The position numbers were made by a program, and so were the translations under genes. Positions 6,543 to 43,534 of a DNA stretch of 43,534 bases are shown here, piece after piece. Numbering within the stretch: position 1 is the first letter of the stretch; every line of letters begins with the position of its first letter. Where the stretch lies: IMG/VR virus record IMGVR_UViG_3300012944_000012; one strand, written 5' to 3'. The DNA is from a virus. The notes under the pieces are model-generated. The model had not been told where the DNA came from. It saw only the letters and a program-made list of their open reading frames with translations, and made no database searches.

Positions 6543-6669
6543 GGCCGCTAGCCTACCTCCAAAATTCTTGGGGGTGCAAGGGAAATTTTTGGGAGGATTT
6601 CGATAGGCTCTAACCGCCTAGTCCATTTTTAGACTTTCCAAGTATTTTGGTTTGTGCAATTTTGGCGGG
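6543..6669. promoter_or_regulatory. Divergent immunity-switch region with box B palindromes.
   Basis: CCAAAATTCTTGG at 6559..6571, CCAAGTATTTTGG at 6638..6650, and a degenerate GGAAATTTTTGGG at 6581..6593. Confidence 0.6.
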
Positions 6670-7002
6670 ATGGAGATCGAGCCAATCAACGCTGACGAAA
6701 GTAAATTGATCGCCCGCCGCCTGAGAGTGATCCGCACCTTGGTCAGCGGAGAGAACCAAGCGGCGTTTGCGCGGATGCTTGGCATCTTCCCCAACCGCTG
6801 GAACAACTTTGAGCGCGGCTCGCCGCTGACGCTGCGGGTGGCCTTCCTATTGGTCAAGACCGTTGACGGATTGTCCGTGAGCTATATTACCCACGGAAAG
6901 ACCGGCGACCTTCCCAAGGAGCTACGCCGTCAACTGGCGGCCTTGGAAGCCGAGCTATTTCCGCTTTCCTCGTCAAGGTCCAAGCGGTCGCCAAAGACGT
7001 AA
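6670..7002 (+). CDS. XRE-family HTH repressor (CI-like, putative).
   Basis: LIARRLRVIRTLVSGENQAAFARMLGIFPNRWNNFERG is a classic XRE HTH. Divergent from the Cro-like gene. Confidence 0.7.
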   Translation: MEIEPINADESKLIARRLRVIRTLVSGENQAAFARMLGIFPNRWNNFERGSPLTLRVAFLLVKTVDGLSVSYITHGKTGDLPKELRRQLAALEAELFPLSSSRSKRSPKT

Positions 7003-8313: not shown

Positions 8314-8769
8314 ATGCCGATCATCGATCCAAGGGACTTTGAAACGCCAGCCCTGCCGGAAGTGGTTTTGGCAGCGTTCCGGAGCGTGCCGTACATCACG
8401 TTTCCGGGGCTGGCGCGGTTGCTCAACATGCACAAGCGAACGCTCGCCAAGCATGTTGGAAAAACCGATAGGTTGCCGTGGCGGCAAAAGGGAACGGGTC
8501 CGAAAAAGCCCCACCGGGTTTTCACCCTGTCCGATGTCGCGATGATTTGGCATGGCATGACCAAACAGGGGGACCAATGTCAAAATCAGACCTCATCGGC
8601 AAGCGCGTCAAGCGATCCAGAGAAACCTCGCCGTTCATCTATCGTTTTTCTATCGACGGTCACAAATTCCAAGGCACCACCGGCACCACCGACAAGGTCA
8701 CGGCCGAAGCCTATGCCGAGAAAAAGTTCCAAGAGGCGAGCGCCATCGCCGCCAAGGAGCGCCAGCTAA
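8314..8769 (+). CDS. HTH protein, excisionase-like (putative).
   Basis: FPGLARLLNMHKRTLAKHV...VFTLSDVAMIW. The ORF has no stop until 8769, so its low-complexity tail overlaps int by 193 nt. Confidence 0.45.
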   Translation: MPIIDPRDFETPALPEVVLAAFRSVPYITFPGLARLLNMHKRTLAKHVGKTDRLPWRQKGTGPKKPHRVFTLSDVAMIWHGMTKQGDQCQNQTSSASASSDPEKPRRSSIVFLSTVTNSKAPPAPPTRSRPKPMPRKSSKRRAPSPPRSAS

Positions 8770-9734
8770 ACAATGTGCCGATGACGTTCGGCATGGCCTG
8801 CGACAAGTGGCTAACCGGCAAGGCCACCCGGTTACGGGAACAGGGATTGCAGGAACAGGCCGCTTGGCTGCGCAAGCAGATTGGGGACACCAAGCTGTTG
8901 CAGAACATCCGCAAGGGCGACATTTCGGCGATGGTGGCGGCGCGGGCCAAATGTTTGCGGCCGGGCATCGACGGCACGTTTCGGCGGATCGCGGATAGCA
9001 CGGTCAACAAGACCACCCGGCTGATGCAACGCATCTTGAACTATGCCGAGAGCAATCATGACGCCATCGTGAAGCGGTTTGCGTGGAAGGATTTTTTCAT
9101 CAAGCTGCCAAAGGCCCGCCCGGCCAAGCGCGCGGTGTCGCCGGCCAACGAGCAGATTATCTTGGGCACCATTGCCGCCGATTATCTCGACCTCGCCCGC
9201 TTCGCCATCATCGGCGGCTTGCGCGCCTCGGAAAATCTGCTGCTTTGGGACCAAGTCGATTGGGGCAATAACAAGCTGCTGGACGTGGTTGGCAAGGGGC
9301 ACCGCGAGGGCCGCGACGTGCCGATGGGGCCGGCCGAAATGGCGATCCTGCGGGCGCAATACAACCGCACCGACCGGCACCCGACGCACGTCTTTACCTA
9401 TGTTGCCAAAAAGACCGGCAAGATTCCGCGCACGGATCGCTCGACCATCAAGGACAAGCGATATCCGATCACCTATGCGGGCTGGAAATCCGAGTGGGAG
9501 GAAATGCAGCAGGCGACTGGGCTTAAGGTCCGCATCCACGACCTCCGTCACACGGCGGTAACGCGGGCGCTCCAGCGCACCAACGGCAATCTGCCGGCGG
9601 TGCGCGACATGGTTGGACACGCCGACGGCAAAACCACGCTGCTCTATTGGGATGGCGACGAGCAGGCGGTGCGCGATGCCAAGGACATCGGATTTGTCCC
9701 CAAAGCTGTCCCCAAGCGCAAAAAGACCGGCTAA
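8577..9734 (+). CDS. int: Tyrosine integrase.
   Basis: C-terminal HDLRHTAVTR...VRDMVGHADGKTTLLY (R-H-R-Y catalytic pattern). Start at MSKSDL with an AGGGGGA RBS. Confidence 0.9.
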   Translation: MSKSDLIGKRVKRSRETSPFIYRFSIDGHKFQGTTGTTDKVTAEAYAEKKFQEASAIAAKERQLNNVPMTFGMACDKWLTGKATRLREQGLQEQAAWLRKQIGDTKLLQNIRKGDISAMVAARAKCLRPGIDGTFRRIADSTVNKTTRLMQRILNYAESNHDAIVKRFAWKDFFIKLPKARPAKRAVSPANEQIILGTIAADYLDLARFAIIGGLRASENLLLWDQVDWGNNKLLDVVGKGHREGRDVPMGPAEMAILRAQYNRTDRHPTHVFTYVAKKTGKIPRTDRSTIKDKRYPITYAGWKSEWEEMQQATGLKVRIHDLRHTAVTRALQRTNGNLPAVRDMVGHADGKTTLLYWDGDEQAVRDAKDIGFVPKAVPKRKKTG

Positions 9735-9976: not shown

Positions 9977-10195
9977 ATGCCGTCGTCACAGGCCGAACTT
10001 TTCCCCGCCACCGTCACCATCGGCACGCTGGCAATGCTGCCCGAAAAGCAGCCGTGCTATTGCCGGAAGGCGGACAAACACCACCATGTCAACGAGCATG
10101 TGTTCGACGGCCGGCGCTGGATCATGACGTGCTCACAGGCCGGGATCGACCTGATGGCCGAGATCAGCGGCGCCGCTTCTTCTTGCCGGCTTTGA
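9977..10195 (+). CDS. Hypothetical 72-aa protein next to attP.
   Basis: GGGAGA RBS 6 nt upstream; strong third-position GC. Converges with, and overlaps by 32 nt, the XRE gene. Confidence 0.45.
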   Translation: MPSSQAELFPATVTIGTLAMLPEKQPCYCRKADKHHHVNEHVFDGRRWIMTCSQAGIDLMAEISGAASSCRL

Positions 10196-10454
10196 GCGGA
10201 GCCTCGCTCTCCTTGGGGGCCTTCTCCTTGGGAGCCTTGGCGAGGCCAAGCGGACTGCCGTCATCGGCGCACTGAAACCGCAGCCCCGCACCCTCGAACG
10301 CCCGGTTGATCGCCAATAAATTATTGGTATGGGGAACACGCCGTCCGGCTTCGAAATCGCGGATCGTGCTGCTCGATACCTGAGCCTTGCTGCCCAAGTT
10401 CGCTTGCGACCAATTCAGCCACGCGCGGGCCGCTCTGCATTGTTCCGGTGACAT
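10164..10454 (-). CDS. XRE-family HTH regulator with a Lys-rich tail.
   Basis: MSPEQCRAARAWLNWSQANLGSKAQVSSSTIRDFEAGRR matches the HTH_XRE pattern. Confidence 0.8.
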   Translation of the reverse strand: MSPEQCRAARAWLNWSQANLGSKAQVSSSTIRDFEAGRRVPHTNNLLAINRAFEGAGLRFQCADDGSPLGLAKAPKEKAPKESEAPLKAGKKKRRR

Positions 10455-10810: not shown

Positions 10811-11314
10811 ATGGCGATCAAGAAACTCACTTTTTCATTTGACGTGCCGCTAACCAGTCTGTTGAGCCTGATCGCGGCCGGGCAAGCGGATTTGCGGATC
10901 GACGTACTGGGTGACGACAAACCGCTATCCGCAAAGGCTCTGGCCGCCGCTGGCATTTCCGGGCTGCTGCCAAGGCCGCACGGCCATACCGACGTAACGC
11001 GCTCGCGCGGCATCGATGCCTCCGGCAATCGAAAAACCGCGAAGGCCGCCATGCTGGAGGGCATGGCGAAGGCGGCGGGCCACACCATGACGCTCGCGCA
11101 GATGCGACCGCTTGTCGCGGCGCTGGGCTTGTCCCCGGCTTCGGCCAACTCGCAAATCAGCTTCATCACCAAGAAGGGATGGGCCGAAACGACAGAGCCC
11201 GGCAAACACCGGCTCACAGAGTCCGGCCTTACGGAGTGCGCGCGGCGCGGCTTCGACGTAATCAAACCCCCAAAGACCAAGAAGGCCGTCAACGGCGCGG
11301 TGCACCATGGGTAA
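10811..11314 (+). CDS. Hypothetical protein with a possible C-terminal winged helix.
   Basis: 167 aa, CAAGAGGGGCAA leader; first gene of the plus-strand operon. Confidence 0.6.
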   Translation: MAIKKLTFSFDVPLTSLLSLIAAGQADLRIDVLGDDKPLSAKALAAAGISGLLPRPHGHTDVTRSRGIDASGNRKTAKAAMLEGMAKAAGHTMTLAQMRPLVAALGLSPASANSQISFITKKGWAETTEPGKHRLTESGLTECARRGFDVIKPPKTKKAVNGAVHHG

Positions 11315-11661: not shown

Positions 11662-12066
11662 ATGGCACCAAGGAAAAAGAGCGTGAAAAAACACAACGCG
11701 AACCAGCGCGGCACCAAGGACAGTGACGGGATCATTGGCAACCGGATACGCGCCTACCGGATCGAGCGCGGCCTGTCGCAAGAGCAATTGGGGATCGCGC
11801 TGAAAGTTTCGTTCCAGCAAATCCAGAAATACGAAAAAGGCACCAACCGGCTGTCGGCGACGCGCTTGATCGAGACGGCGAAGATCATGGGCGTCACCCC
11901 GCACGATTTGCTGGGCTGGAACGGTGCCGGCGTCAAGCTTGGCAAGGCCATCGACGTTGAAAGCTTCAAGCTGGCGCAGGAGTTCTGCGGTCTGCGCGAT
12001 GGCTTGAAACCGGCGTTCCGCAATCTGATCGAAACGGTGATGAAGGAAAAAACAACGCGCGCCTGA
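11662..12066 (+). CDS. XRE-family HTH regulator.
   Basis: IGNRIRAYRIERGLSQEQLGIALKVSFQQIQKYEKGTNRLSATRL is a canonical XRE HTH. Confidence 0.85.
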   Translation: MAPRKKSVKKHNANQRGTKDSDGIIGNRIRAYRIERGLSQEQLGIALKVSFQQIQKYEKGTNRLSATRLIETAKIMGVTPHDLLGWNGAGVKLGKAIDVESFKLAQEFCGLRDGLKPAFRNLIETVMKEKTTRA

Positions 12067-31760: not shown

Positions 31761-31848
31761 TCGCCGACGAACCGTTGTTCTATCGCCGACGAACCGTTGT
31801 TCTATCGCTGACGAACCGTTGTTCTGTCACGGGCGAACCGTTGTTCTG
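31761..31848. repeat. 4 x 22-bp tandem direct repeat.
   Basis: Copies at 31761, 31783 (identical to the first), 31805 and 31827; invariant core CGAACCGTTGTTCT. The last copy encodes the portal C-terminus (RTTVRP-stop). Confidence 0.95.
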
Positions 31849-33776
31849 TTTTTGGCCTGCCGGTCGGCGTCACGCGCCGCATGTTCGGCGAACAGTTCGA
31901 GCGGGGCCAACCGTGCCTGCTGTTCCAGCTTGCGGGCGGATGCCGTTTTGTGGATCGCGGTGGCTTCGGTTTCGCGGATGTCGGCCAGTTGCTGTAGGAT
32001 GTCGAGGTCGGTCTTCGGCAACTCGCCCGGCGAGTCCGGTGCGCCTTCGGTTTGCGCTTTGGCGATGTTGAGCATGGTCTGCGATTTGGTCTTGTCGATT
32101 TCGGCGTTGGTCTTGCCGACTTCGGCGTTCTTGTTCGCCAGTTCCAGTTGCGCCGCCTGCATCTTGATCGGGTCCGGCTGCGAGATCATGGCGTTGAGCT
32201 TCTTCTTCTCCTTGGCCGGCAGATAAGAGGCTTCGATAATGGCCTGCGGCGGTACCGGCACATTGTTCTGCGACAATGCCATCAGGGTATCGAACACATC
32301 GCCCATCACGGTTTCGGTATCGGGGCCTTCATCAATGTGGATATCGACATCGATTTGCCCCAAGGCGTTGACCAGCGCCGGGCGGCCCCACGGATCGAAT
32401 TGCACGCCGTTGATCATCATGAACTGCGCCACGCCCTGATCATCGGTGACGCGCAAAAACCGTTGCGCGGTCCAGTAGCGTTGCGCGGCGCACCACGCGG
32501 CGCGGTATTGCGCCAGCTTCCACATCCGGAAATTTTTCAGGAACGGCCCGAGTTCGGCGAGCCCCGCTTGCTGCGACATATTATAGGCGCGGCCCGAGGT
32601 GTTTTGCCCCATCATCATCAGTTGCTGGTTCGGCCCGAAATTATCAATCTCGGCCTTGGCGTCCTGATAGTACTGGGTCTGCTGCAAGAACTCCTGATCG
32701 GGCTGGATGATTTCGAGATCGGCCTTGTCGCCGTGATAAACCAGTGTGCCATCCGGCCGTGCGGCTTCCCGCCGTGTGACTTCGACATCATCCACCGCGC
32801 CATCCTTGATCTTCAACTGACGGGTGTTCATGATATGGATCGACTTGGAACGATGCTGGTTCATGGCGTCCTGCGGCCCGCGCAAGCGCCGGACAAATCC
32901 GTAATGGTCGCCGTCGATGTCGATTTGGTTGGCGAACGCAAAAAATTTGGAAATGCTCTTGTTGCGTTCGTCGTAGAACGGGCTATCGCCCTGCATCAAC
33001 AGCGCGGTGCCGGCGTGCAGGCACCATTTCCAGACCCCTTGCTCCAGATACCAGTGATCCACCAACCTGACCCGGTTGCGGTTGTCGGTCCACAGCGTCT
33101 CGCGGTCGGTGTCGAACGCGGTCCAGTAGCCGCTATCGGCCTGCAACGAGCCCGACACCTGATCGGACGCCCCCTCCACCAGTTCATCGAGTTCGGTGAC
33201 ATCGGCCCATTTGGCGATGCCGTGAAACCGTGTGTCGGTAAAATCAAATTTCAGGGAGCGCGGATCGTAGAAGAAGGTCTTGGGATCGCGGTACTCAAAT
33301 CGCAAATCCGGGTCGCCCTGATCGCCTTCGATCAGCATCAACTCGTCCACCGCCAGACCGTGCACCGCGCCGTCGCGGCAGCACTCGGTTTCCAAATCCT
33401 CGAACAACGAGGCGTCGCAGATGGTTCTAATGACCTGGGTGGCGACTTCCGCGCCCGCTTCGCCTTTCGGGGTGTTGGGGTAACACTTGCAGTCGGTGCG
33501 CAGCTTCCGCACGGTACCGACAAGGCTGTCGATCTTCCTTCCAATGCGGTCGAACGTGATCGGCGGCTGGTTGCGCTTTTTCAAGGTGCGCAATTGCTCC
33601 GTGGTCCACTGATCGACATGGTAGTAGCGCCATGACGCCCGAGCTTCGTCAATCTCTCTGGATTTGACGCTGGCGTAGTCCTCAAATTCCTTGCGCCGGG
33701 TGCGCAGCAGCTTGTCGTCGTCGGGCTTTTCCTTGGTGTCGGCATAGTCGGCGCGACTCAGCGTGACGGTCTGCAT
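31827..33776 (-). CDS. Portal protein.
   Basis: 649 aa, directly downstream of TerL with overlapping stop and start, upstream of the scaffold gene. Confidence 0.8.
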   Translation of the reverse strand: MQTVTLSRADYADTKEKPDDDKLLRTRRKEFEDYASVKSREIDEARASWRYYHVDQWTTEQLRTLKKRNQPPITFDRIGRKIDSLVGTVRKLRTDCKCYPNTPKGEAGAEVATQVIRTICDASLFEDLETECCRDGAVHGLAVDELMLIEGDQGDPDLRFEYRDPKTFFYDPRSLKFDFTDTRFHGIAKWADVTELDELVEGASDQVSGSLQADSGYWTAFDTDRETLWTDNRNRVRLVDHWYLEQGVWKWCLHAGTALLMQGDSPFYDERNKSISKFFAFANQIDIDGDHYGFVRRLRGPQDAMNQHRSKSIHIMNTRQLKIKDGAVDDVEVTRREAARPDGTLVYHGDKADLEIIQPDQEFLQQTQYYQDAKAEIDNFGPNQQLMMMGQNTSGRAYNMSQQAGLAELGPFLKNFRMWKLAQYRAAWCAAQRYWTAQRFLRVTDDQGVAQFMMINGVQFDPWGRPALVNALGQIDVDIHIDEGPDTETVMGDVFDTLMALSQNNVPVPPQAIIEASYLPAKEKKKLNAMISQPDPIKMQAAQLELANKNAEVGKTNAEIDKTKSQTMLNIAKAQTEGAPDSPGELPKTDLDILQQLADIRETEATAIHKTASARKLEQQARLAPLELFAEHAARDADRQAKNRTTVRP

Positions 33777-35224
33777 TACAGCAGCATCGGGTCAGCCGAT
33801 GTCACGCGCTCAATCGCCTTGTAGTCGCGCTTCGGCAGGGTGATGGTTTTCACCTTCGGCATCCGTCCTTTGATCATGTGATCGAGCAACTGGCCGATCA
33901 ATCCCAGCGCGTCCACTTGGTCATCGTGCACACCGGCCGGGAAATGCAGCAATTCAGACCTGAAATCCGCCAGCCACGGAGCGCGTGACGGCACATAGAG
34001 CCCACTCAAGGACATGCGGCCTTGGATCGAGCGGGCGCGCACCGCCTTGTCGCCGCGCGTCGGAAACATTTCGCGCTCACACCACGCCCGGCGTTCTCTT
34101 TGCCTTCGGTCCAGAAACGGCCCGATGCCGGCGCGGATTTGGCCCTGTTCTTCCGCCCATGCGAACGGCTTGTATTTCAACACCAGATCGCAGAACGCAT
34201 CGATCCAGATGTCGCTCGTGTTTTGCTGGCGCCACACCTCCAAGAGATACATCCGTTCCTCCGGATCGAGCCCGACCACGGCATGCACGGTGTAGTCGCC
34301 GCCGTCCTTGGTCACCGCATAGTCCGAGCCGCCGTAACATCGCAGGGTTTTCAAATCCGGGATGTGGTTGACCGGATGCAGCCACTCGTCCTTGAAATAA
34401 TCGCCTTCATCCGGCGTCGGTTCTTGCTGATAGAGGGCTGACCACACCCGTGCCGGCGTGTTCACTTTCAAATCGGCGAGTTGCTGGCCGTAGCCGTAGT
34501 CGTCGTCGTTCCACAAAAATTCGCCAACCGGCCGTCCCAGCGGATCATCGTCCTTGGCTTCCGCCGGCAACGACAACACGTCCCAATGCTGGAAATTGAT
34601 CGCCCTGCCCGCGAGGTCGTCCTCATGCCAGCGGGTCTGGATCAGCATTTGCCGGGCGCGCGGCACCAGACGCGGTCTGAAATCGTTGAGATACCAATCC
34701 CACAACCGATCCCGAACCAGAGAGCTATCGGCGTCTTGACGCGAGCGGATCGGGTCATCGATCAAGCCATACAACGCCCGGAATCCGGCGATGCCGGTCA
34801 AGGCCCCGGCCGCCAGATACTCGCCGCCCTGTTCCAGTCCCCATCGTCCGGCCGCCTGATTGTCCGCCGTCAATTTGATGTTCAAGCTAGGCGCGTGATC
34901 GCCGACCAGATTTCGCACCCTGCGGCCCCAGCGTTCCGCAAGTTCGGTGGTATGCGACGCCGCAAGGATCATCGCGGCCGGGTCTTGCGCGAACAGCCAC
35001 GCCGGAAACAGGATCGAGGCATAAGTCGATTTCGCAGAGCCCGGCGGCATGAACACCGCCAGCCGTTCGATCTCGCCACGGGCAAGGGCTTCGAGATACT
35101 GGATCAGCAGCCGGTGATGACGGGCCGGGATATAGCCGTTTTCCAGACACCACTCGGTCAACGAGCCACGCAGCCGTCGCCGCCGCAGCACTTCTTGTGC
35201 GGCTTGGTCCGGCGTGAGGTGCAT
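33776..35224 (-). CDS. terL: Terminase large subunit.
   Basis: Walker A-like FMPPGSAKST. C-terminal nuclease region GGSDYAV...DDQVDAL. 482 aa. Confidence 0.9.
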   Translation of the reverse strand: MHLTPDQAAQEVLRRRRLRGSLTEWCLENGYIPARHHRLLIQYLEALARGEIERLAVFMPPGSAKSTYASILFPAWLFAQDPAAMILAASHTTELAERWGRRVRNLVGDHAPSLNIKLTADNQAAGRWGLEQGGEYLAAGALTGIAGFRALYGLIDDPIRSRQDADSSLVRDRLWDWYLNDFRPRLVPRARQMLIQTRWHEDDLAGRAINFQHWDVLSLPAEAKDDDPLGRPVGEFLWNDDDYGYGQQLADLKVNTPARVWSALYQQEPTPDEGDYFKDEWLHPVNHIPDLKTLRCYGGSDYAVTKDGGDYTVHAVVGLDPEERMYLLEVWRQQNTSDIWIDAFCDLVLKYKPFAWAEEQGQIRAGIGPFLDRRQRERRAWCEREMFPTRGDKAVRARSIQGRMSLSGLYVPSRAPWLADFRSELLHFPAGVHDDQVDALGLIGQLLDHMIKGRMPKVKTITLPKRDYKAIERVTSADPMLL

Positions 35225-37940: not shown

Positions 37941-38049
37941 GACCGAAAGCATGCTTGCCCTCCGAGAAATTTTCCCCCTCCGGTGCCCCGCGCCGCGTCG
38001 CATCCCCGCCCGCCCGCGCGATGTCGCAGAAACCCAATGAAATCAGGCA

Positions 38050-38571
38050 TTACTTGCTCGTTGCAACAGGCTTACGTTGGTCGGTCTGTTGCGTTTCATC
38101 GGGCTTGTGCTCGATTGTCAGCGGGCTACTCGCTGCAATGGCGAGTAATTGCTCGTCACTCAACTGTCTTACGTTCACGTTGACCGTGGTTTCAGTCTGA
38201 TACATATCGCGCCACTCGTCCGGATCGGCGTTCTTCAAAGCGAAGATGGCTGCTGTGACGCCAACCCCTATTTTTGTAGTCAGCAGCTTACGTTCCAGCG
38301 CGCGCAGCCGCGCTGCACGCGCAATTTGTACTGCATGGCGAAAGTCCGCGTGACGATCAATCCACTCATACACCGCGTCTTTGCTAACCCTGATCTCCCC
38401 GGCAAAGGCCGTCAGACTATAGCCCTCGCCCATGATCTCTATCACGCTGATGCAATAGGCCGGATCATAGAGCGTTGGCCGTCCGAAGATGTAGCCATAA
38501 GGCTTTGGCTTCGCCCTAAACGGCCGGGGCGAACCGAACCGCTTCGCTGGCACAGTTTGACACTCTCTCAC
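38050..38571 (-). CDS. terS: Terminase small subunit.
   Basis: GRPTLYDPAY...GYSLTAFAGEIRVSKDAVYEWIDRHADF...AAIFALKNADPDEWRD is the classic small-terminase HTH pattern. GTG start. Confidence 0.8.
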   Translation of the reverse strand: MRECQTVPAKRFGSPRPFRAKPKPYGYIFGRPTLYDPAYCISVIEIMGEGYSLTAFAGEIRVSKDAVYEWIDRHADFRHAVQIARAARLRALERKLLTTKIGVGVTAAIFALKNADPDEWRDMYQTETTVNVNVRQLSDEQLLAIAASSPLTIEHKPDETQQTDQRKPVATSK

Positions 38572-38714
38572 TGACCGCGCCGCGCCAGAGCAGGCTTGGC
38601 AGTGAAGCGAACCAGCGTCACCTTGGCGCGGTGCTTGGCCGCGCGGATCAGGCTCGCCTTGTCGCTATAGCTCACCGGCTTGCGGCCCTGATTATTTTTC
38701 TTCGCTTTCCTCAT
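38568..38714 (-). CDS. Possible 48-aa basic protein, translationally coupled to terS.
   Basis: MRKAKKNNQGRKPVSYSDKASLIRAAKHRAKVTLVRFTAKPALARRGQ. AAAGAGG RBS; its stop overlaps the terS GTG (GTGA). Below the ORF-track size cutoff. Confidence 0.35.
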   Translation of the reverse strand: MRKAKKNNQGRKPVSYSDKASLIRAAKHRAKVTLVRFTAKPALARRGQ

Positions 38715-38724
38715 CATTGCCTCT

Positions 38725-38753
38725 TTACAGACTAGGCCATTTTGGCCTATGTT
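38725..38753 (+). promoter_or_regulatory. Promoter-like element with a perfect box A in the spacer.
   Basis: TTACAG, 17-nt spacer, TATGTT. TAGGCCATTTTGGCCTA at 38733..38749. Confidence 0.5.
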
Positions 38754-38796
38754 GTTTTCGACGGCGCAACACCGCGCCAGCGCAAGGGGAACTGAT

Positions 38797-38949
38797 ATGC
38801 ACGATCAAGCAACCGAAAGCGCCGTTGAGCGCGCAATGAACCGGCTCGACGCTCGCCTGATGGCTCACGAGCTAACGCAATCGGAGTATGATCGCGAGGT
38901 CGCCACCTTGGATAAATGGGCACAAGCCCAATATCGTTGCCTGATCTAA
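38797..38949 (+). CDS. Hypothetical 50-aa protein.
   Basis: CAAGGGGAA leader upstream of the ATG. Confidence 0.6.
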   Translation: MHDQATESAVERAMNRLDARLMAHELTQSEYDREVATLDKWAQAQYRCLI

Positions 38950-38966
38950 ACGCAAGGGGAACCAAA

Positions 38967-39227
38967 ATGAAAACGGTCAAGATCGAAACCATCAAGGCGC
39001 GGGCTAACGAAACATTTCGCGGTAGCGTTGACGAGATGTCGATCCAACGGCGCGCAATTCAGTATTTCGTTTCTGATCTATTAATGAAGCACAACGCTTA
39101 TAAAGGCTTTCGATATCTGGAGGCGCACGATGTCGAACCGGGCAAATCGTTCGGGCTAATCCGCAACAACGAACAACCGGAAGGCCCGCATACTTTCCCT
39201 GATGATAGTCGCATCGCCTTCCTATGA
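38967..39227 (+). CDS. Hypothetical protein.
   Basis: 86 aa. The GCAAGGGGAACCAAAATG leader is identical to the one at 41743..41760. Confidence 0.65.
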   Translation: MKTVKIETIKARANETFRGSVDEMSIQRRAIQYFVSDLLMKHNAYKGFRYLEAHDVEPGKSFGLIRNNEQPEGPHTFPDDSRIAFL

Positions 39228-39249
39228 CCGCGATCAAATCGCGACATCA

Positions 39250-39275
39250 AAGCCCGGCATTGTCCGGGCTTTTTC
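39250..39275 (+). terminator. Rho-independent terminator.
   Basis: GCCCGG-cattgt-CCGGGC followed by TTTTT. Confidence 0.8.
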
Positions 39276-39315
39276 TTTGCCTGAAAATAATTTCAGTTTT
39301 CTTGACTAGGCCATA

Positions 39316-39344
39316 TTGACCTAACCCAAATAATTTGGTTATGT
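39316..39344 (+). promoter_or_regulatory. Sigma-70-like promoter carrying box A and box B.
   Basis: TTGACC, 17-nt spacer, TTATGT. Box A at 39307..39323 overlaps the -35; box B at 39326..39338 fills the spacer. Confidence 0.55.
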
Positions 39345-39374
39345 CCCCTCACGAACAACGCAAGGGGATTTTTA

Positions 39375-39668
39375 ATGTTCGATCACAACGCCATGAACGA
39401 GCTAAAGCATGTCGCCGCTGACCGCTATCAGCGCAACGGTTGCGGCGGCGCTCACAAGGTGCATGCAACATCCGTCGCCTATGACAAGGCGCACGGCTAC
39501 GGCGAGATGACGCCGTTTCGGCAAGCGGTCTATCGCGCGCGCATGCAATACAAGGTGGCTTGCGACAACGCGCGGAGCGATTTCTCTTTCGCTCCGGTCG
39601 CCTTCGATCTCGCCAAGGAAGAAAGGCGGGAGGCCGCGCGCTATGCGCTCGCATCCATCCCTTTCTAA
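39375..39668 (+). CDS. Hypothetical protein.
   Basis: 97 aa with a CAAGGGGA leader. Confidence 0.6.
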   Translation: MFDHNAMNELKHVAADRYQRNGCGGAHKVHATSVAYDKAHGYGEMTPFRQAVYRARMQYKVACDNARSDFSFAPVAFDLAKEERREAARYALASIPF

Positions 39669-39813
39669 CCAAACCGAGTTGCCGGCCACCGAGCCCCGCA
39701 TCGCCGAAACCCTGCAACGGCGCGCCAATGCGCCATTGCTTCCCGCAAAACCGCAAATCCCATGTGATGCCGGATTGTTCGGCGACACGCCAAACCAGAA
39801 GGAAATGTTCTGA
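39643..39813 (+). CDS. Possible 56-aa protein.
   Basis: MRSHPSLSNQTELPATEPRIAETLQRRANAPLLPAKPQIPCDAGLFGDTPNQKEMF. GGGAGG RBS. Fills the gap to the next gene (TGATG junction). Below the ORF-track cutoff. Confidence 0.35.
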   Translation: MRSHPSLSNQTELPATEPRIAETLQRRANAPLLPAKPQIPCDAGLFGDTPNQKEMF

Positions 39814-40082
39814 TGTCCAAGACCTTCACTTATTTTACTGATCCCGGCCATGGTTGGCTCAATGTCACCACGGCCGATTGTCTTGATGTCGGTTTGCTTT
39901 CCAGCGATTTCAGCCGCTACTCGTACCGCCGCGCTGAAAAACTCTATCTGGAGGAAGATTGCGACGCGCCGAAGTTTATCACCGCCTATACCGCCAAGCA
40001 TGGCGCGGCACCAACGATCAAGCAAAGCCACACCAACGGCAATAGCTTGATCCGGACGCAAGCGCGGATCAATCCCGCCTGA
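39813..40082 (+). CDS. Hypothetical protein.
   Basis: 89 aa, MSKTFTYFTDPGHGWLNV.... Confidence 0.65.
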   Translation: MSKTFTYFTDPGHGWLNVTTADCLDVGLLSSDFSRYSYRRAEKLYLEEDCDAPKFITAYTAKHGAAPTIKQSHTNGNSLIRTQARINPA

Positions 40083-40104
40083 TCGAAACCGACTCTGACA
40101 ATCC

Positions 40105-40133
40105 AAGCCCGGCCGATTGTGCCGGGCTTTTTT
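40105..40133 (+). terminator. Rho-independent terminator.
   Basis: AAGCCCGGC...GCCGGGCTT followed by TTTT. Confidence 0.8.
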
Positions 40134-40171
40134 GTGCCCGAAATTTATTGGCTGTTTTCCACTAGGCCATC

Positions 40172-40201
40172 TTGACCGCTAGGCCATTTTGGCAGTATGC
40201 T
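40172..40201 (+). promoter_or_regulatory. Orphan promoter-like element with no ORF downstream.
   Basis: TTGACC, 18-nt spacer, TATGCT. Box A copies at 40163..40179 and 40180..40196. Confidence 0.45.
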
Positions 40202-40488
40202 GAAAGATTGCGGTTGCGCCGAACCGGCCAAAACGCGGTATCAAATAACCGCCAATAGCAAGCCCGCCCATGCGTTATTTCCACAAGCCCGCTACCTCAC
40301 TAACCAAAAAATTTGGGCGCACGGGCGAGGCTGCTAATCTGTCAACCAAATTATTTGGGACATACCCCAATTATTTTGGGTTCACTCACTTGACAGCTAG
40401 GCCATTTCGACCTAGCCGCGACGCGGCCTGATTTGCAACTATATTGCGCCAACATCCAAATATTTTGGTGAAAATGTCGGCTCCATGA

Positions 40489-40562
40489 GAGAGTCACCCA
40501 TGCGTTATTTTTCGGTTTTGATACCAGAGTAAGGCGGAAATGTTCGCCGCCCGGTGACTCTC
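40489..40562. other. Candidate structured RNA/DNA element inside the ORF-free tract.
   Basis: A 10-bp perfect stem: GAGAGTCACC (40489..40498) pairs with GGTGACTCTC (40553..40562). It encloses an inner GGCGG/CCGCC hairpin. Confidence 0.3.
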
Positions 40563-40695
40563 CTATTGTGTCAAGTCCTTGCAGCCAAAATATTTGGGTT
40601 GATGTCGCGGCGCAATCGACGCAGCCGTACCCGCACCGATTTGCGCGCTGTAACATTTTGTGACCAAATTTTTTGGATATCCCCTCTAGGCCGTA

Positions 40696-40724
40696 TTGAC
40701 CTATAGGCCATTTTGGCCTATCAC
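40696..40724 (+). promoter_or_regulatory. Sigma-70-like promoter of ardC with tandem box A copies.
   Basis: TTGACC, 17-nt spacer, TATCAC. Box A at 40687..40703 and a perfect TAGGCCATTTTGGCCTA at 40704..40720. Confidence 0.55.
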
Positions 40725-40757
40725 AGGATCAACGCAACGCCAGCAAGGGGAAACCAA

Positions 40758-41633
40758 ATGGCAAACCTTTACACTGATGTCACCGCCCGCATCCTCGCCG
40801 ATCTCGAAAACGGCACCGCGCCATGGGTCAAGCCATGGTCCGCGACGCCGGGTAACAACGTGCCGCACAACGCCGCGACCGGCCGGCCCTACTCCGGTTG
40901 CAACGTGGTGCTGTTGTGGCTGTCGCACGGCCGCTTCGCCTCGCCGCGCTTCATGACCTTCAAACAAGCCAAGGAACTGGGCGGCAATGTCCGCAAGGGC
41001 GAGCACGGCTTTACCGTGTATTTCGTCAAGCCGATGACCGGCAAACCCAAGGACGGCGAAACCGAGGGCAAGGCGTTCACCATGCTGCGCGCCTATACCG
41101 TGTTCAATGTCGATCAGTGCGAAAATCTGCCGGCGAAAATCCTCAACGCGGAGCCGGTCAAGCCGCGCCACACTGACGAGCGCGACGCCACCATTGACGA
41201 GTTCATTGCCGCCAGCGGCTGCGATTTCCGCGCCGATGTCGGCGGTGACAGGGCCTATTACAGCCCGGCCGGGGACTTCGTCGCCATGCCGGCGTTCGCC
41301 GCGTTCCGCTCCGCTGCCAATTACTACGCGGTGGCGTTTCATGAGATGGGCCATTGGACCGGCCACGCCTCGCGCTTGGATCGCGATCTAAAGAACCGTT
41401 TCGGAACCCGCGCCTATGCAGCGGAGGAACTGGTGGCCGAACTGACCGCCGCGTTCTTGTGCGCCGAGTTCAGCATCGACGGCGAGATACGCCATGCCGC
41501 TTACATCAAATCATGGATCGAACTATTGAAGGACGACGCCCGCGCGTTCTTTACCGCCGCCAGCGCCGCGCAAAAAGCCGCCAGCTTCCTGCGGGATCGC
41601 GTGCTCGCCGAGCCGGTGGCGCTCGCCGCCTGA
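40758..41633 (+). CDS. ardC: ArdC-type antirestriction protein (ssDNA-binding N-domain plus zincin metalloprotease C-domain).
   Basis: N-terminus ARILADLENGTAPWVKPW...YSGCNVVLLW (DUF1738-like). C-terminus AFHEMGHWTGH, an HExxH motif typical of ArdC. Confidence 0.9.
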   Translation: MANLYTDVTARILADLENGTAPWVKPWSATPGNNVPHNAATGRPYSGCNVVLLWLSHGRFASPRFMTFKQAKELGGNVRKGEHGFTVYFVKPMTGKPKDGETEGKAFTMLRAYTVFNVDQCENLPAKILNAEPVKPRHTDERDATIDEFIAASGCDFRADVGGDRAYYSPAGDFVAMPAFAAFRSAANYYAVAFHEMGHWTGHASRLDRDLKNRFGTRAYAAEELVAELTAAFLCAEFSIDGEIRHAAYIKSWIELLKDDARAFFTAASAAQKAASFLRDRVLAEPVALAA

Positions 41634-41722: not shown

Positions 41723-41757
41723 CAGGACATCAACACAGCGAAGCAAGGGGAACCAAA

Positions 41758-41970
41758 ATGTACGATCTAGCCCATGAAAACCAAGCACCCGGCCGGTGCG
41801 GCAAGTGTCGCGGGACCGGCGTCTATGGCTGGGGCGCTTGTGTCAACGGCAAGATGCAAAATTCCGGAACCTGCTTTTCGTGCCGTGGCACCGGCCAACA
41901 GGATACCCGCCAAATCAGGCGCAACCATACCTATAACCGTTACAAGATCGCGGCGATTGCCCGGCTCTGA
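41758..41970 (+). CDS. 70-aa protein with two DnaJ-type CxxCxGxG zinc-finger motifs.
   Basis: CGKCRGTG and CFSCRGTG motifs; conserved leader upstream. Confidence 0.65.
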   Translation: MYDLAHENQAPGRCGKCRGTGVYGWGACVNGKMQNSGTCFSCRGTGQQDTRQIRRNHTYNRYKIAAIARL

Positions 41971-42796: not shown

Positions 42797-43375
42797 GGCG
42801 GAGCGTCGTAATTCCGGAACGCATGGCGCACTTGCCATTGGACCGGCGCGGTTATCCGATATTTTTCGGCGCCTTCGTTGAGCCGGACGGCACGCCGCAT
42901 TTCACCATTAATTCCGAGGTCGAAGCGCGTCGAAATGATCGCGCGCGATTTGTGCTCTATCTGCGGCAAGACGCTGTTGCGTGGCCGCTGGTTCATCGGC
43001 GGCCCCCGCTCCGCGTTCCATAAGCGCGGCGCTTATATCGACATGCCGACCCATGCCGAGTGCGCGCATTATGCGTTGCGGGTTTGCCCGTACCTTGCCG
43101 CGCCGAGCTACGCCCGCGAGGTCGGCAAACGCAAGGCGGAAGCCGTCAAGGCCGGCGTCATTGCCATCGATCCAACCATGATCCCGGAACGGCCGTTGCT
43201 GTTCGTGGCGTTGATGGCAGTCGGCCAAAGCATGACCGGCAGCAATGGCTTTCAAAGCTACGTCAAGCCGCACCGCCCTTATCGCAAAATCGAGTACTGG
43301 CAGCACGGCGAGCAATTGCCGGACGCGCTGGGCCGGATGCTGGCAACCGATTTCATGAAGGAAGATGCAGCATGA
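42793..43375 (+). pseudogene. Frame-disrupted paralog of 12097..12741, needing a +1 shift between 42901 and 42953.
   Basis: The N-part (42793..43023 frame) aligns to residues ~10-55 of the paralog. The C-part (42878..43375 frame) aligns from the CxxC motif onward. The Phe-to-Cys distance is 52 nt (17 codons plus 1), matching the paralog spacing. Confidence 0.55.
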
Positions 43376-43534
43376 CCAAGAAACCGAAAACCAAGCGCAT
43401 GAGCGCCGAGCAATACCAAGCTGCTATCGACGCGCTGGGGCTGACCCAAATCGGCGCGGCGCGGTTTCTCAAGATCGGCGAGCGAACCTCGCGCCGCTAT
43501 GTCGCGGGCGGTACCATCCCCTATGCCGTCGAAC
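43372..43534 (+). CDS. 5-prime part of the junction-spanning HTH protein (continues at 124..179).
   Basis: The ATG overlaps the upstream stop (ATGA). See feature 3..179. Confidence 0.7.
   Translation, partial: MTKKPKTKRMSAEQYQAAIDALGLTQIGAARFLKIGERTSRRYVAGGTIPYAVE
43412..43534. repeat. Terminal direct repeat, identical to 1..123.
   Basis: Base-by-base identity. Confidence 0.95.

Follow-up and report, generated by a model that had tools for sequence, protein, structure and literature searches.

We propose that positions 40135-40757 of the viral genome IMGVR_UViG_3300012944_000012, the tract immediately preceding the anti-restriction gene ardC, form a compound control region of the ardC early cassette, in which a tandem module of an approximately 108-bp unit, operators and a TTGAC-type promoter is combined with helically phased DNA elements. 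The proposal is drawn from comparison of the window, that is, the whole stretch of 43,534 nucleotides analysed, with related phage contigs, and we give it a probability of about 0.5. Its promoter and operator part appears quite probable to us, and a role of the units at the DNA level is put forward more tentatively, at slightly less than even odds. The region is a fresh example of a phage regulatory type, and it contains a family of cis-elements not described before.

According to this proposal, the tract would have arisen by tandem duplication of a segment comprising a unit, then phage-specific operators and then a TTGAC-type promoter, and would present three predicted promoter cores (P1, P2 and PardC), all pointing at ardC. 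Two phage repressors acting on two operator types, boxes A and B, would silence the three promoters in the lysogen, and several promoters would feed ardC upon entry or induction; because the boxes are predicted operators for two repressors, ardC would be expected to be off in lysogens and served by multi-promoter firing when the DNA enters or the prophage is induced. The units would be ancient paralogs acting at the DNA level, most likely as a binding or bending platform for a factor common to these phages, which might be a host protein, a conserved phage protein or possibly RNA polymerase itself, and which, on one face of the helix, would communicate with the promoter/operator complexes beside it.

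ArdC-type anti-restriction genes need immediate expression on DNA entry and silencing later. The tract shows how control of ardC is laid out in one family of soil temperate phages of Bradyrhizobium/Xanthobacteraceae type, by means of stacked promoters, two exchangeable operator types and a palindromic element. If a conserved host or phage factor binds the unit, this would constitute a new control point for phage anti-defence genes, and the unit would provide a sequence signature for early anti-defence cassettes in metagenomic phage contigs. Should the unit turn out to be no more than a variant promoter or an architectural spacer, the tract would be an ordinary, if elaborate, phage regulatory region.

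Predicted promoters and operators upstream of ardC

The tract extends from the terminator of the upstream cassette to the ardC start codon, with the following features besides the two units, which are itemised further below.

40105-40133, + strand: intrinsic terminator of the upstream cassette (gene 39813-40082), recovered by a terminator scan; nine pairs (40105-40129), then a T-run
40139-40151: box B-like palindrome CGAAATTTATTGG, one mismatch
40163-40201, + strand: predicted promoter P1; -35 TTGACC (40172-40177), N18, -10 TATGCT (40196-40201); box A half-site at 40163-40179 and box A in the spacer at 40180-40196
40346-40358 and 40367-40379: two box B operators (predicted), 21 bp apart, between unit 1 and P2
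40390-40418, + strand: predicted promoter P2; -35 TTGACA (40390-40395), box A-like sequence at 40398-40414, weak -10 TAGCCG (40413-40418)
40435-40447: palindrome 'box C', GCAAC-N3-(G)TTGC, with GATTT before it
40456-40468: box B just upstream of unit 2; the homologous place in L172 reads CGTAATTATTACG
40585-40597: box B after unit 2
40640-40676: GCTGTAACATTTTGTGA, a conserved block, with box B at 40664-40676; upstream of PardC
40687-40724, + strand: predicted promoter PardC; box A at 40687-40703, -35 TTGACC (40696-40701), -10 TATCAC (40719-40724)
40745-40752, + strand: Shine-Dalgarno sequence AAGGGGAA, ahead of the ardC ATG at 40758

An earlier note on this DNA had located the copies of boxes A and B, the P1 module TTGACC-N18-TATGCT, the TTGACA at 40390, an exact 14-mer duplication and a 10-bp stem enclosing a GGCGG/CCGCC hairpin, and we recovered all of them at the same coordinates. 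It had also described the promoter-like modules as orphans with nothing to express. The modules are present, but the terminator scan revealed no terminator between P1 or P2 and ardC, so that both can serve this gene. P1, which was among only four sigma-70-type matches in the interval 38.5-43.5 kb, is a 35-nt copy of the PardC core (86% identical), and a promoter at its position appears only in the window and in L331 among the aligned tracts. The CTTGAC of P2 is kept in five of six aligned tracts, the sixth (L196) having TTTGGAC there and TTGAC 11 nt upstream. The 17-nt spacer of PardC holds a perfect box A palindrome (40704-40720), a place taken by box B in L193, L113, L196 and L142. Homologous terminators precede unit 1 in the relatives, and the GCTGTAACATTTTGTGA block with its box B is also found in L193 and L113, both of which do without units.

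Box B is a 13-bp palindrome, CCAA-W5-TTGG, occurring at 24 sites of the genome with at most one mismatch, as against 0.68 expected, and no shuffled sequence reached 24. By an unbiased count it is the commonest 4-N-4 palindrome of this genome of 60% G+C, and it likewise comes first in L114, L142/L343 and L196. Exact copies start at 40304, 40346, 40367, 40456, 40585 and 40664 within the tract; outside it, box B is mostly intergenic, at promoter-like positions genome-wide. Box A (TAGGCCAT) is half of the 17-bp palindrome TAGGCCA-N3-TGGCCTA. Exact copies of it stand at 40163, 40180, 40398 and 40704, the copy at 40687 differs by one mismatch, and the full palindrome is perfect at 40704 and 38733. 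Twelve box A sites were found with at most three mismatches (0.96 expected), 10 of them at 38.7-42.5 kb. Both boxes overlie -35 hexamers, fill promoter spacers or sit just upstream, and the predicted promoters at 39316 and 41694 read TTGAC(C/A)-N4-box B, then a -10-like hexamer.

The comparison with relatives, which were obtained via the large terminase (82-84% identity) and DNA patterns, showed that the positions of the boxes are kept while their sequences are exchanged. Box B is retained in L112/L193/L194, L113, L114/L198, L142 and L196. At homologous positions L172/L340 carry CGTA-W5-TACG for box B and GCGCTAG for box A, L331, L329 and L338 carry GCCTAGGC, and L349 carries CATAGGGC; the slot at 40346-40379 is likewise filled with phage-specific palindromes in the relatives. 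Because position is kept and sequence exchanged, the boxes appear to be phage-specific repressor operators, and we infer that boxes A and B are predicted operators of two phage repressors. The operator array that the earlier note had offered among several roles is thus borne out by over-representation of the boxes, by their location on or next to promoter hexamers and by their swapping in relatives. Helix-turn-helix (HTH) proteins that might act as repressors are encoded at 10164-10454(-), 11662-12066(+), 6652-7002(+) and 43373-176(+).

Box A probably gates the entire early-accessory region, since a perfect box A (38733-38749) lies in the spacer of its first promoter. This first + strand early promoter, TTTACA-N18-TATGTT at 38724-38753, stands back to back with the late and packaging genes of the minus strand, at their start. 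Box B sites, exact or with one mismatch, also occur as pairs at 6559/6638, 10630/10649, 14083/14104 and 37009/37028, the last three 19-21 bp apart. Some of these pairs lie between divergent genes, one of them between the HTH genes 10164-10454(-) and 10811-11314(+), and the paired regions are candidates for the main immunity switch, with box B as candidate operator of the primary repressor. As for box C, its block ATTTGCAAC..GTTGCGCC is conserved in the window, L172 and L331. The surrounding region (40430-40452, GATTT-GCAAC-N3-GTTGC-GCC) lies between P2 and the box B that precedes unit 2, and the same slot holds a GAAAT..ATTYC palindrome in L198 and L142; box C could be a further operator of the exchangeable kind, or else a small hairpin whose changes are compensatory.

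With six to seven copies of box B within 540 bp, some of them 21 or 42 bp apart, with a G+C content of 49.6% as against 60.2% genome-wide, and with large palindromes bearing A/T tracts, the tract could also be taken for a replication origin or a partition/centromere site, as the earlier note had contemplated, in which box B would act as iterons or ParB-type sites. We regard this as extremely unlikely. Unlike iterons, box B is dispersed genome-wide in promoter-like intergenic sites and spacers, among the open reading frames (ORFs) screened Pfam and PHROG gave a match neither to a partition protein nor to a canonical replication initiator, and the presence of a tyrosine integrase leads one to expect integration. 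Moreover, the units precede other early genes in L331, L338 and L332, and syntenic relatives do without them.

The arrangement resembles well-known control regions of temperate phages. As in the lambdoid and P22 regions (OR/OL; immI with Pant and the Mnt and Arc operators), palindromes lie over the -35 or the spacer of early promoters, with about two helical turns between the members of some pairs of sites, and the operators differ by phage in a pattern of immunity specificity. Unlike those regions, the window interleaves two operator types, stacks three promoters in the same direction with no genes between them and has large conserved palindromic units between the promoters; the repressors here are only candidates. 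The scattering of one operator type over many promoters genome-wide also recalls the C1 operators of phage P1.

The repeated unit and its helical phasing

The earlier note missed a conserved repeated element of which the 14-mer duplication and the 10-bp stem are both parts. It is present as two paralogous units of about 108 bp, one on each side of P2, with the following anatomy.

40243-40351, + strand: unit 1 (nhmmer E = 2e-20), with the first 14-mer copy
40253-40280: in unit 1: left arm 40253-40275, invariant CGTTATTT at 40273-40280
40304-40345: in unit 1, continued: box B 40304-40316, right arm 40317-40339, -10-like TAATCT 40335-40340, invariant TGTCAA 40340-40345
40473-40580, + strand: unit 2 (nhmmer E = 2e-21), with the second 14-mer copy and the long-range stem
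40483-40510: in unit 2: left arm 40483-40505 (stem arm 40489-40498), CGTTATTT at 40503-40510
about 40533-40568: in unit 2, continued: GGCGG/CCGCC hairpin at about 40533-40552, right arm 40546-40568 (stem arm 40553-40562)
40564-40574: right end of unit 2; -10-like TATTGT 40564-40569, TGTCAA 40569-40574

The 14-nt exact repeat, CCCATGCGTTATTT, starts at 40267 and 40497. We found 21 distinct units on at least 12 distinct phage contigs, as pairs in the same order as in the window in L114/L198, L142, L172, L196, L331, L349 and L360, and singly in L329, L332, L338, L344 and L359. Their alignment is nearly gapless (108-110 columns, one internal one-base indel), and the distance from CGTTATTT to GTCAA is constant at 72-73 nt despite a strongly diverged interior. 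The left flanks are of a 'u1 type', ACCGCCAATAGGAAG, and a 'u2 type', GCGGYTCAATTAGAAG, which are kept across phages; since the two remain distinguishable in this way, the duplication must be old. Every unit lies upstream of a promoter, in a uniform orientation relative to the downstream gene. That gene varies: the L331 pair precedes a homolog of the window gene at 39375, the L338 unit a serine recombinase gene, and those of L332, L344 and L359 an HTH gene. Two syntenic phages, L193 and L113, are without units and keep the terminator, two box B sites and PardC.

The units are also regularly spaced. Their arms, of 23 bp each, have centres 63-64 bp apart, which is about six helical turns, and between them lie a T-tract and, about 30 bp from it, an A-tract. 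The next downstream TTGAC follows the unit end at 45 nt in seven cases and at 44, 44, 42, 55, 56, 56, 34, 25 and 67 nt in the others; the intervening sequences are unrelated in the seven 45-nt contexts, and the gap from unit 1 to P2 in the window is 45 nt. From the upstream TTGAC to CGTTATTT the distances are 79, 101, 112/113 or 123 nt. In a Rayleigh scan the maximum falls at 10.5-11 bp (R = 0.86 for the downstream distances and 0.94 for the upstream ones), and counting distinct spacings once leaves R = 0.77-0.91 and p ~0.01; as the spacings share part of their descent, the p-values are indicative only. One-turn steps fit protein contacts on one face of the helix and would not be imposed by an RNA element, and this argues for an architecture at the DNA level.

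Several features of the unit sequence may be recorded here. Invariant positions stand 9 nt apart in both arms (alignment columns 14, 23 and 32; 76, 85, 94 and 103), as T-N8-C-N8-G and C-N8-G-N8-A-N8-A, a step that is neither coding periodicity nor a turn of B-DNA. The only GANTC sites of the tract, the CcrM motif, are at 40491-40495 and 40556-40560, in both stem arms of unit 2; the GAGTC/GACTC cassette also occurs in units of L142, L331, L344, L359 and L360, and the genome has 30 GANTC sites. Compared by eye with known motifs, the units matched neither EcfG (GGAAC-N16-17-CGTT; GGAAG and CGTT are only 10 nt apart) nor sigma-54 (GG-N10-GC; the spacing is wrong), and LexA, CtrA, DnaA and IHF boxes did not fit the invariant positions.

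One alternative is that each unit is itself a promoter module, either rightward and factor-dependent, with TAnnGT as -10 and a start near GTCAA directly before box B, or leftward, the invariant minus-strand TTGACA being the -35 of a promoter divergent from P2; the tract would then be a chain of four to five promoters giving overlapping or antisense transcripts. In the right-end TAnnGT of the units the T, A and final T are found in 19, 21 and 19 of the 21, followed by the invariant GTCAA, and a lenient sigma-70 scan gave a recurrent match at this column alone. In addition, the TGTCAA-N10-box B of unit 2 mirrors the box B-N10-TTGACA of P2 (30 nt, 80% complementary), and box B starts 1-11 nt past the unit in several phages. 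However, the rightward -35 is poor (2-3 of six positions in most units), and only nine of the 21 units pass the lenient threshold. At 16-19 nt from the leftward TTGACA no unit has a -10, the sequence there being G+C-rich, and the mirror of TAnnGT in the left arm is without the final T that a minus-strand -10 would have. Conservation of the left arm and of CGTTATTT, 65-95 bp upstream, would also be left unexplained, and this alternative appears unlikely.

The size and symmetry of the units could suggest selfish miniature palindromic repeats without a dedicated function, similar to miniature inverted-repeat transposable elements, ERIC or Correia elements. They are imperfect palindromes of about 100 bp with TA beside GGAAG...CTTCC ends, their presence is polymorphic among syntenic phages (absent from L193 and L113) and they stand before different genes. 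On the other hand, they occur in one or two copies per genome, in fixed orientation and phased to promoters, preserve the u1 and u2 flank signatures across diverged phages, and combine invariant non-palindromic blocks (CGTTATTT and GTCAA) with a diverged interior of fixed length. Nor were copies found in 80 bacterial ardC loci (~1.2 Mb), in PLSDB plasmids or in GenBank phages. A selfish origin is therefore very improbable in our opinion. Likewise, set beside ERIC/IRU, the Correia/NEMIS elements of Neisseria and the rhizobial RIME, as these families are generally known, the units share the imperfect palindrome of ~100-130 bp, the conserved length, the intergenic location and the potential to be transcribed, and Correia ends bear promoter-like hexamers as does the right end of the unit; they differ in being syntenic, phased, fixed in orientation, limited to one or two per phage and absent from the bacterial loci, plasmids and GenBank phages searched.

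Coding potential and RNA folding

The earlier note had called the tract free of ORFs and had listed small RNAs and a structured 5' untranslated region for ardC among its possible roles. No conserved ORF was found, but mechanical ORFs do exist, of 53 aa at 40270-40431 (+) and 101 aa at 40351-40656 (-). Their starts, stops and frames are not preserved in the homologous units, all units together share no open frame, and there is no 3-nt coding periodicity. In 16 of the 21 units an ATG or GTG follows 7 nt after a Shine-Dalgarno-like AGGAAG, the ATG lying inside the 14-mer, with stops 9 to more than 50 codons on.

At the RNA level, Rfam gave no match at the gathering score over the whole window, for any family including C4, and at E <=10 returned only terminator look-alikes in 39900-40900, corresponding to the upstream terminator. 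RNAalifold scored 15 units at -0.7 (forward) and -5.1 (reverse) kcal/mol, and with 21 units found no structure on either strand or in any sub-window. Folded singly, the units are large imperfect palindromes in which alignment columns 11-33 pair with 97-75. Pairing at the dyad amounts to 68.5-70.7% of cells, as against 30-45% when the partner is slid; nevertheless, shuffling the partners among units gives 68.2-70.2%, with 193/500 and 213/500 shuffles reaching the observed values and both strands scoring alike. The complementarity hence resides in the consensus and is not kept sequence by sequence. With RNA parameters the fold z-scores lie between +0.4 and -3.5; with DNA parameters, of six units, the two of the window gave -2.75 and -2.55, and L142_u2, L172_u1, L344 and L331_u1 gave +0.4 to -0.7. 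The stem of unit 2, a 10-bp perfect inverted repeat (40489-40498 with 40553-40562), is real in the window phage but is no conserved feature, its 5' cassette GAGAGTCAC and 3' cassette GTGACTCTC being unpaired in L344, L359 and L331. Thus, the folding and covariation analysis on homologous regions that the earlier note had suggested gave no consensus fold, no covariation and no stem shared with relatives, and speaks against its RNA readings.

A role as RNA deserves nonetheless to be considered, and we rate it as doubtful. On this view, transcription starting at P1 or P2, or reading through, would turn the units into leader or small RNAs, acting through the long hairpin and/or the mini-ORF: as an RNase III or stability element, by sequestration of AGGAAG through CUUCCU in the 3' arm, or through a leader peptide MRYF... 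tuning ardC. The window units fold better than their shuffles (z = -2.9 and -2.8), seven of 16 units reach z <= -2.6, the outer, middle and inner stems have the same layout across the stably folding units, and the 10-bp stem of unit 2 and its 9-bp equivalent in L360_u2 resemble compensated changes. To this may be added the initiation-like motif of the 16 units; besides, P1 and P2 aim into the units, with promoters upstream of both and no terminator after either or before ardC. Against it, a consensus structure is absent on both strands and in all sub-windows, pairing equals that of partner-shuffled controls, and the stem is broken in L331, L344, L359 and L142 by a mixing of 5' and 3' cassettes. 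Nine of the 16 units have z > -1.6, the mini-ORF stop is variable and five units are without a canonical start. In L198, L142, L196, L172 and L349, where P1 has no counterpart, unit 1 begins some 30-45 nt past the upstream terminator with no promoter in the gap, and the Rfam search was negative. The units show no complementarity to the ardC ribosome-binding region, which rejects an antisense logic of C4 or sar type. Since stable hairpins and the Shine-Dalgarno-like motif do occur, an RNA-level role may still be exerted, through sequence and not through structure.

The phage systems with RNA-based leaders agree in part. Like the immI leader of phage P1 (c4 antisense RNA, icd-ant), the tract is a non-coding, repeat-bearing leader before an anti-host or antirepressor gene, with promoters predicted to be sensitive to repressor, but it is without an Rfam C4 match, target repeats at the ardC ribosome-binding site or a conserved RNA fold. 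Like lambda nut and HK022 put, the units occur as two copies in early leaders, in fixed orientation, with a linear motif beside variable sequence; unlike these, they stand in tandem in one leader instead of one per operon, have no conserved hairpin, have unit 1 usually just after a terminator without a promoter, and come with no identified N-like protein.

A further comparison concerns the Frpo/ssi single-strand promoters, in which a stable hairpin of single-stranded DNA reconstitutes -35, -10 and UP elements (PMC11541004). In both cases ardC-type anti-defence early genes are concerned, and one arm offers a -10-type hexamer and an A/T-rich segment with the complement in the other arm. The unit might thus consist of a promoter core (A/T-rich segment, spacer, TAnnGT -10) and its inverted complement, and would be a phage counterpart of these plasmid leading-region promoters, or else a new helically phased family that recruits a conserved host factor to anti-defence promoters. 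Were it a single-strand promoter, anti-defence genes would be expressed from transiently single-stranded or non-canonical DNA just after entry. We consider the idea a long shot: the unit hairpin is not energetically conserved (DNA-fold z ~0 in 4/6), the -35 is poor and there is no covariation. Frpo/ssi elements lie in conjugative leading regions, where the DNA enters single-stranded, whereas the units lie on the double-stranded genome of a tailed phage (terminase, portal, capsid), and the ORFs screened yielded neither a relaxase nor an oriT. Taken together, the units fail the tested defining features of all the families compared here and fit no curated RNA family.

Returning to the compound control region with units acting on DNA, several observations weigh against it. 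The -10-like hexamer of the units has a poor -35, with nine of 21 passing the lenient scan, and the -10 of P2 (TAGCCG) is poor as well. The phasing statistics comprise 13-19 partly related spacings. Seven of 16 units do fold stably (z ~ -2.6 to -3.5), and AGGAAG is followed by ATG or GTG in 16 of 21. Finally, no binder of boxes A and B or of the units was found, and box type showed no clean correspondence with regulator homologs in the parts of the relatives' genomes compared.

The phage, its relatives and the neighbouring cassettes

The two ends of the window share a 123-nt repeat (1-123 = 43412-43534), and because of this overlap the genome is taken as complete and circular, at about 43.4 kb; the same repeat leaves a circular or a terminally redundant phage genome as options. 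The gene screen of this soil phage indicates a temperate phage of P22-like type, with the following landmarks.

31827-33776, - strand: P22-type portal (phage gene screen)
33776-35224, - strand: large terminase
38050-38571, - strand: small terminase
8478-9734: tyrosine integrase
176-817: small serine recombinase
40758-41633 (ATG 40758, stop 41633), + strand: ardC; ArdcN E = 1e-36, MPTase-PolyVal (zincin peptidase) E = 4e-48

A major capsid protein, a GH25 lysin and a Rad52-type recombinase are also encoded. The HTH gene starting at 43373 crosses the genome junction, and the serine recombinase gene comes next. ARAGORN, run in view of an attP-like reading, found no tRNA or tmRNA.

ArdC matches the PHROG 7245 anti-restriction protein (E = 4e-87), and its nearest relatives, at most 76% identical, are encoded in Bradyrhizobium and Xanthobacteraceae genomes. 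A search with ArdC over 185k bacterial genomes gave 80 loci that have only ardC in common with the window, box B and the units being absent from all of them, so that the tract does not travel with ArdC homology. In the Xanthobacteraceae contig DASYNT010000285.1 (L032), from a metagenome-assembled genome, ardC (66-70% identical) was likewise the only part common to the window within the 11.5 kb compared. Neither GenBank phages nor PLSDB plasmids matched the tract or its surroundings in megablast and blastn searches. The upstream 89-aa protein, tried as a search handle, led only to distant phages without boxes. A loose IMG/VR pattern, GCGTTATTT-N25-55-GTGTCAA, retrieved mostly chance matches, and tighter patterns recovered units. 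The soil metagenome contig Ga0137411_1241905 (L326, 2826 nt) is 98.7% identical to window positions 37942-40774, with differences that are all single-base gaps, and in view of this near-identity we regard it as essentially the same phage sampled independently.

The + strand from 38.7 to 43.5 kb carries a series of small cassettes, each with its own predicted promoter and most with an intrinsic terminator (at 39249, 40105, ~41650, the latter read from sequence, and 42414). These early cassettes have in common a 5' leader and a ribosome-binding block, (A)ACGCA..GCAAGGGGAA-N5-7-ATG, located at 39355-39377, 40730-40760 and 41735-41760 and homologous in L193, L198, L142, L196, L331 and L329. The shared block may be a translational signal common to the cassettes, or a linker for recombination between them.

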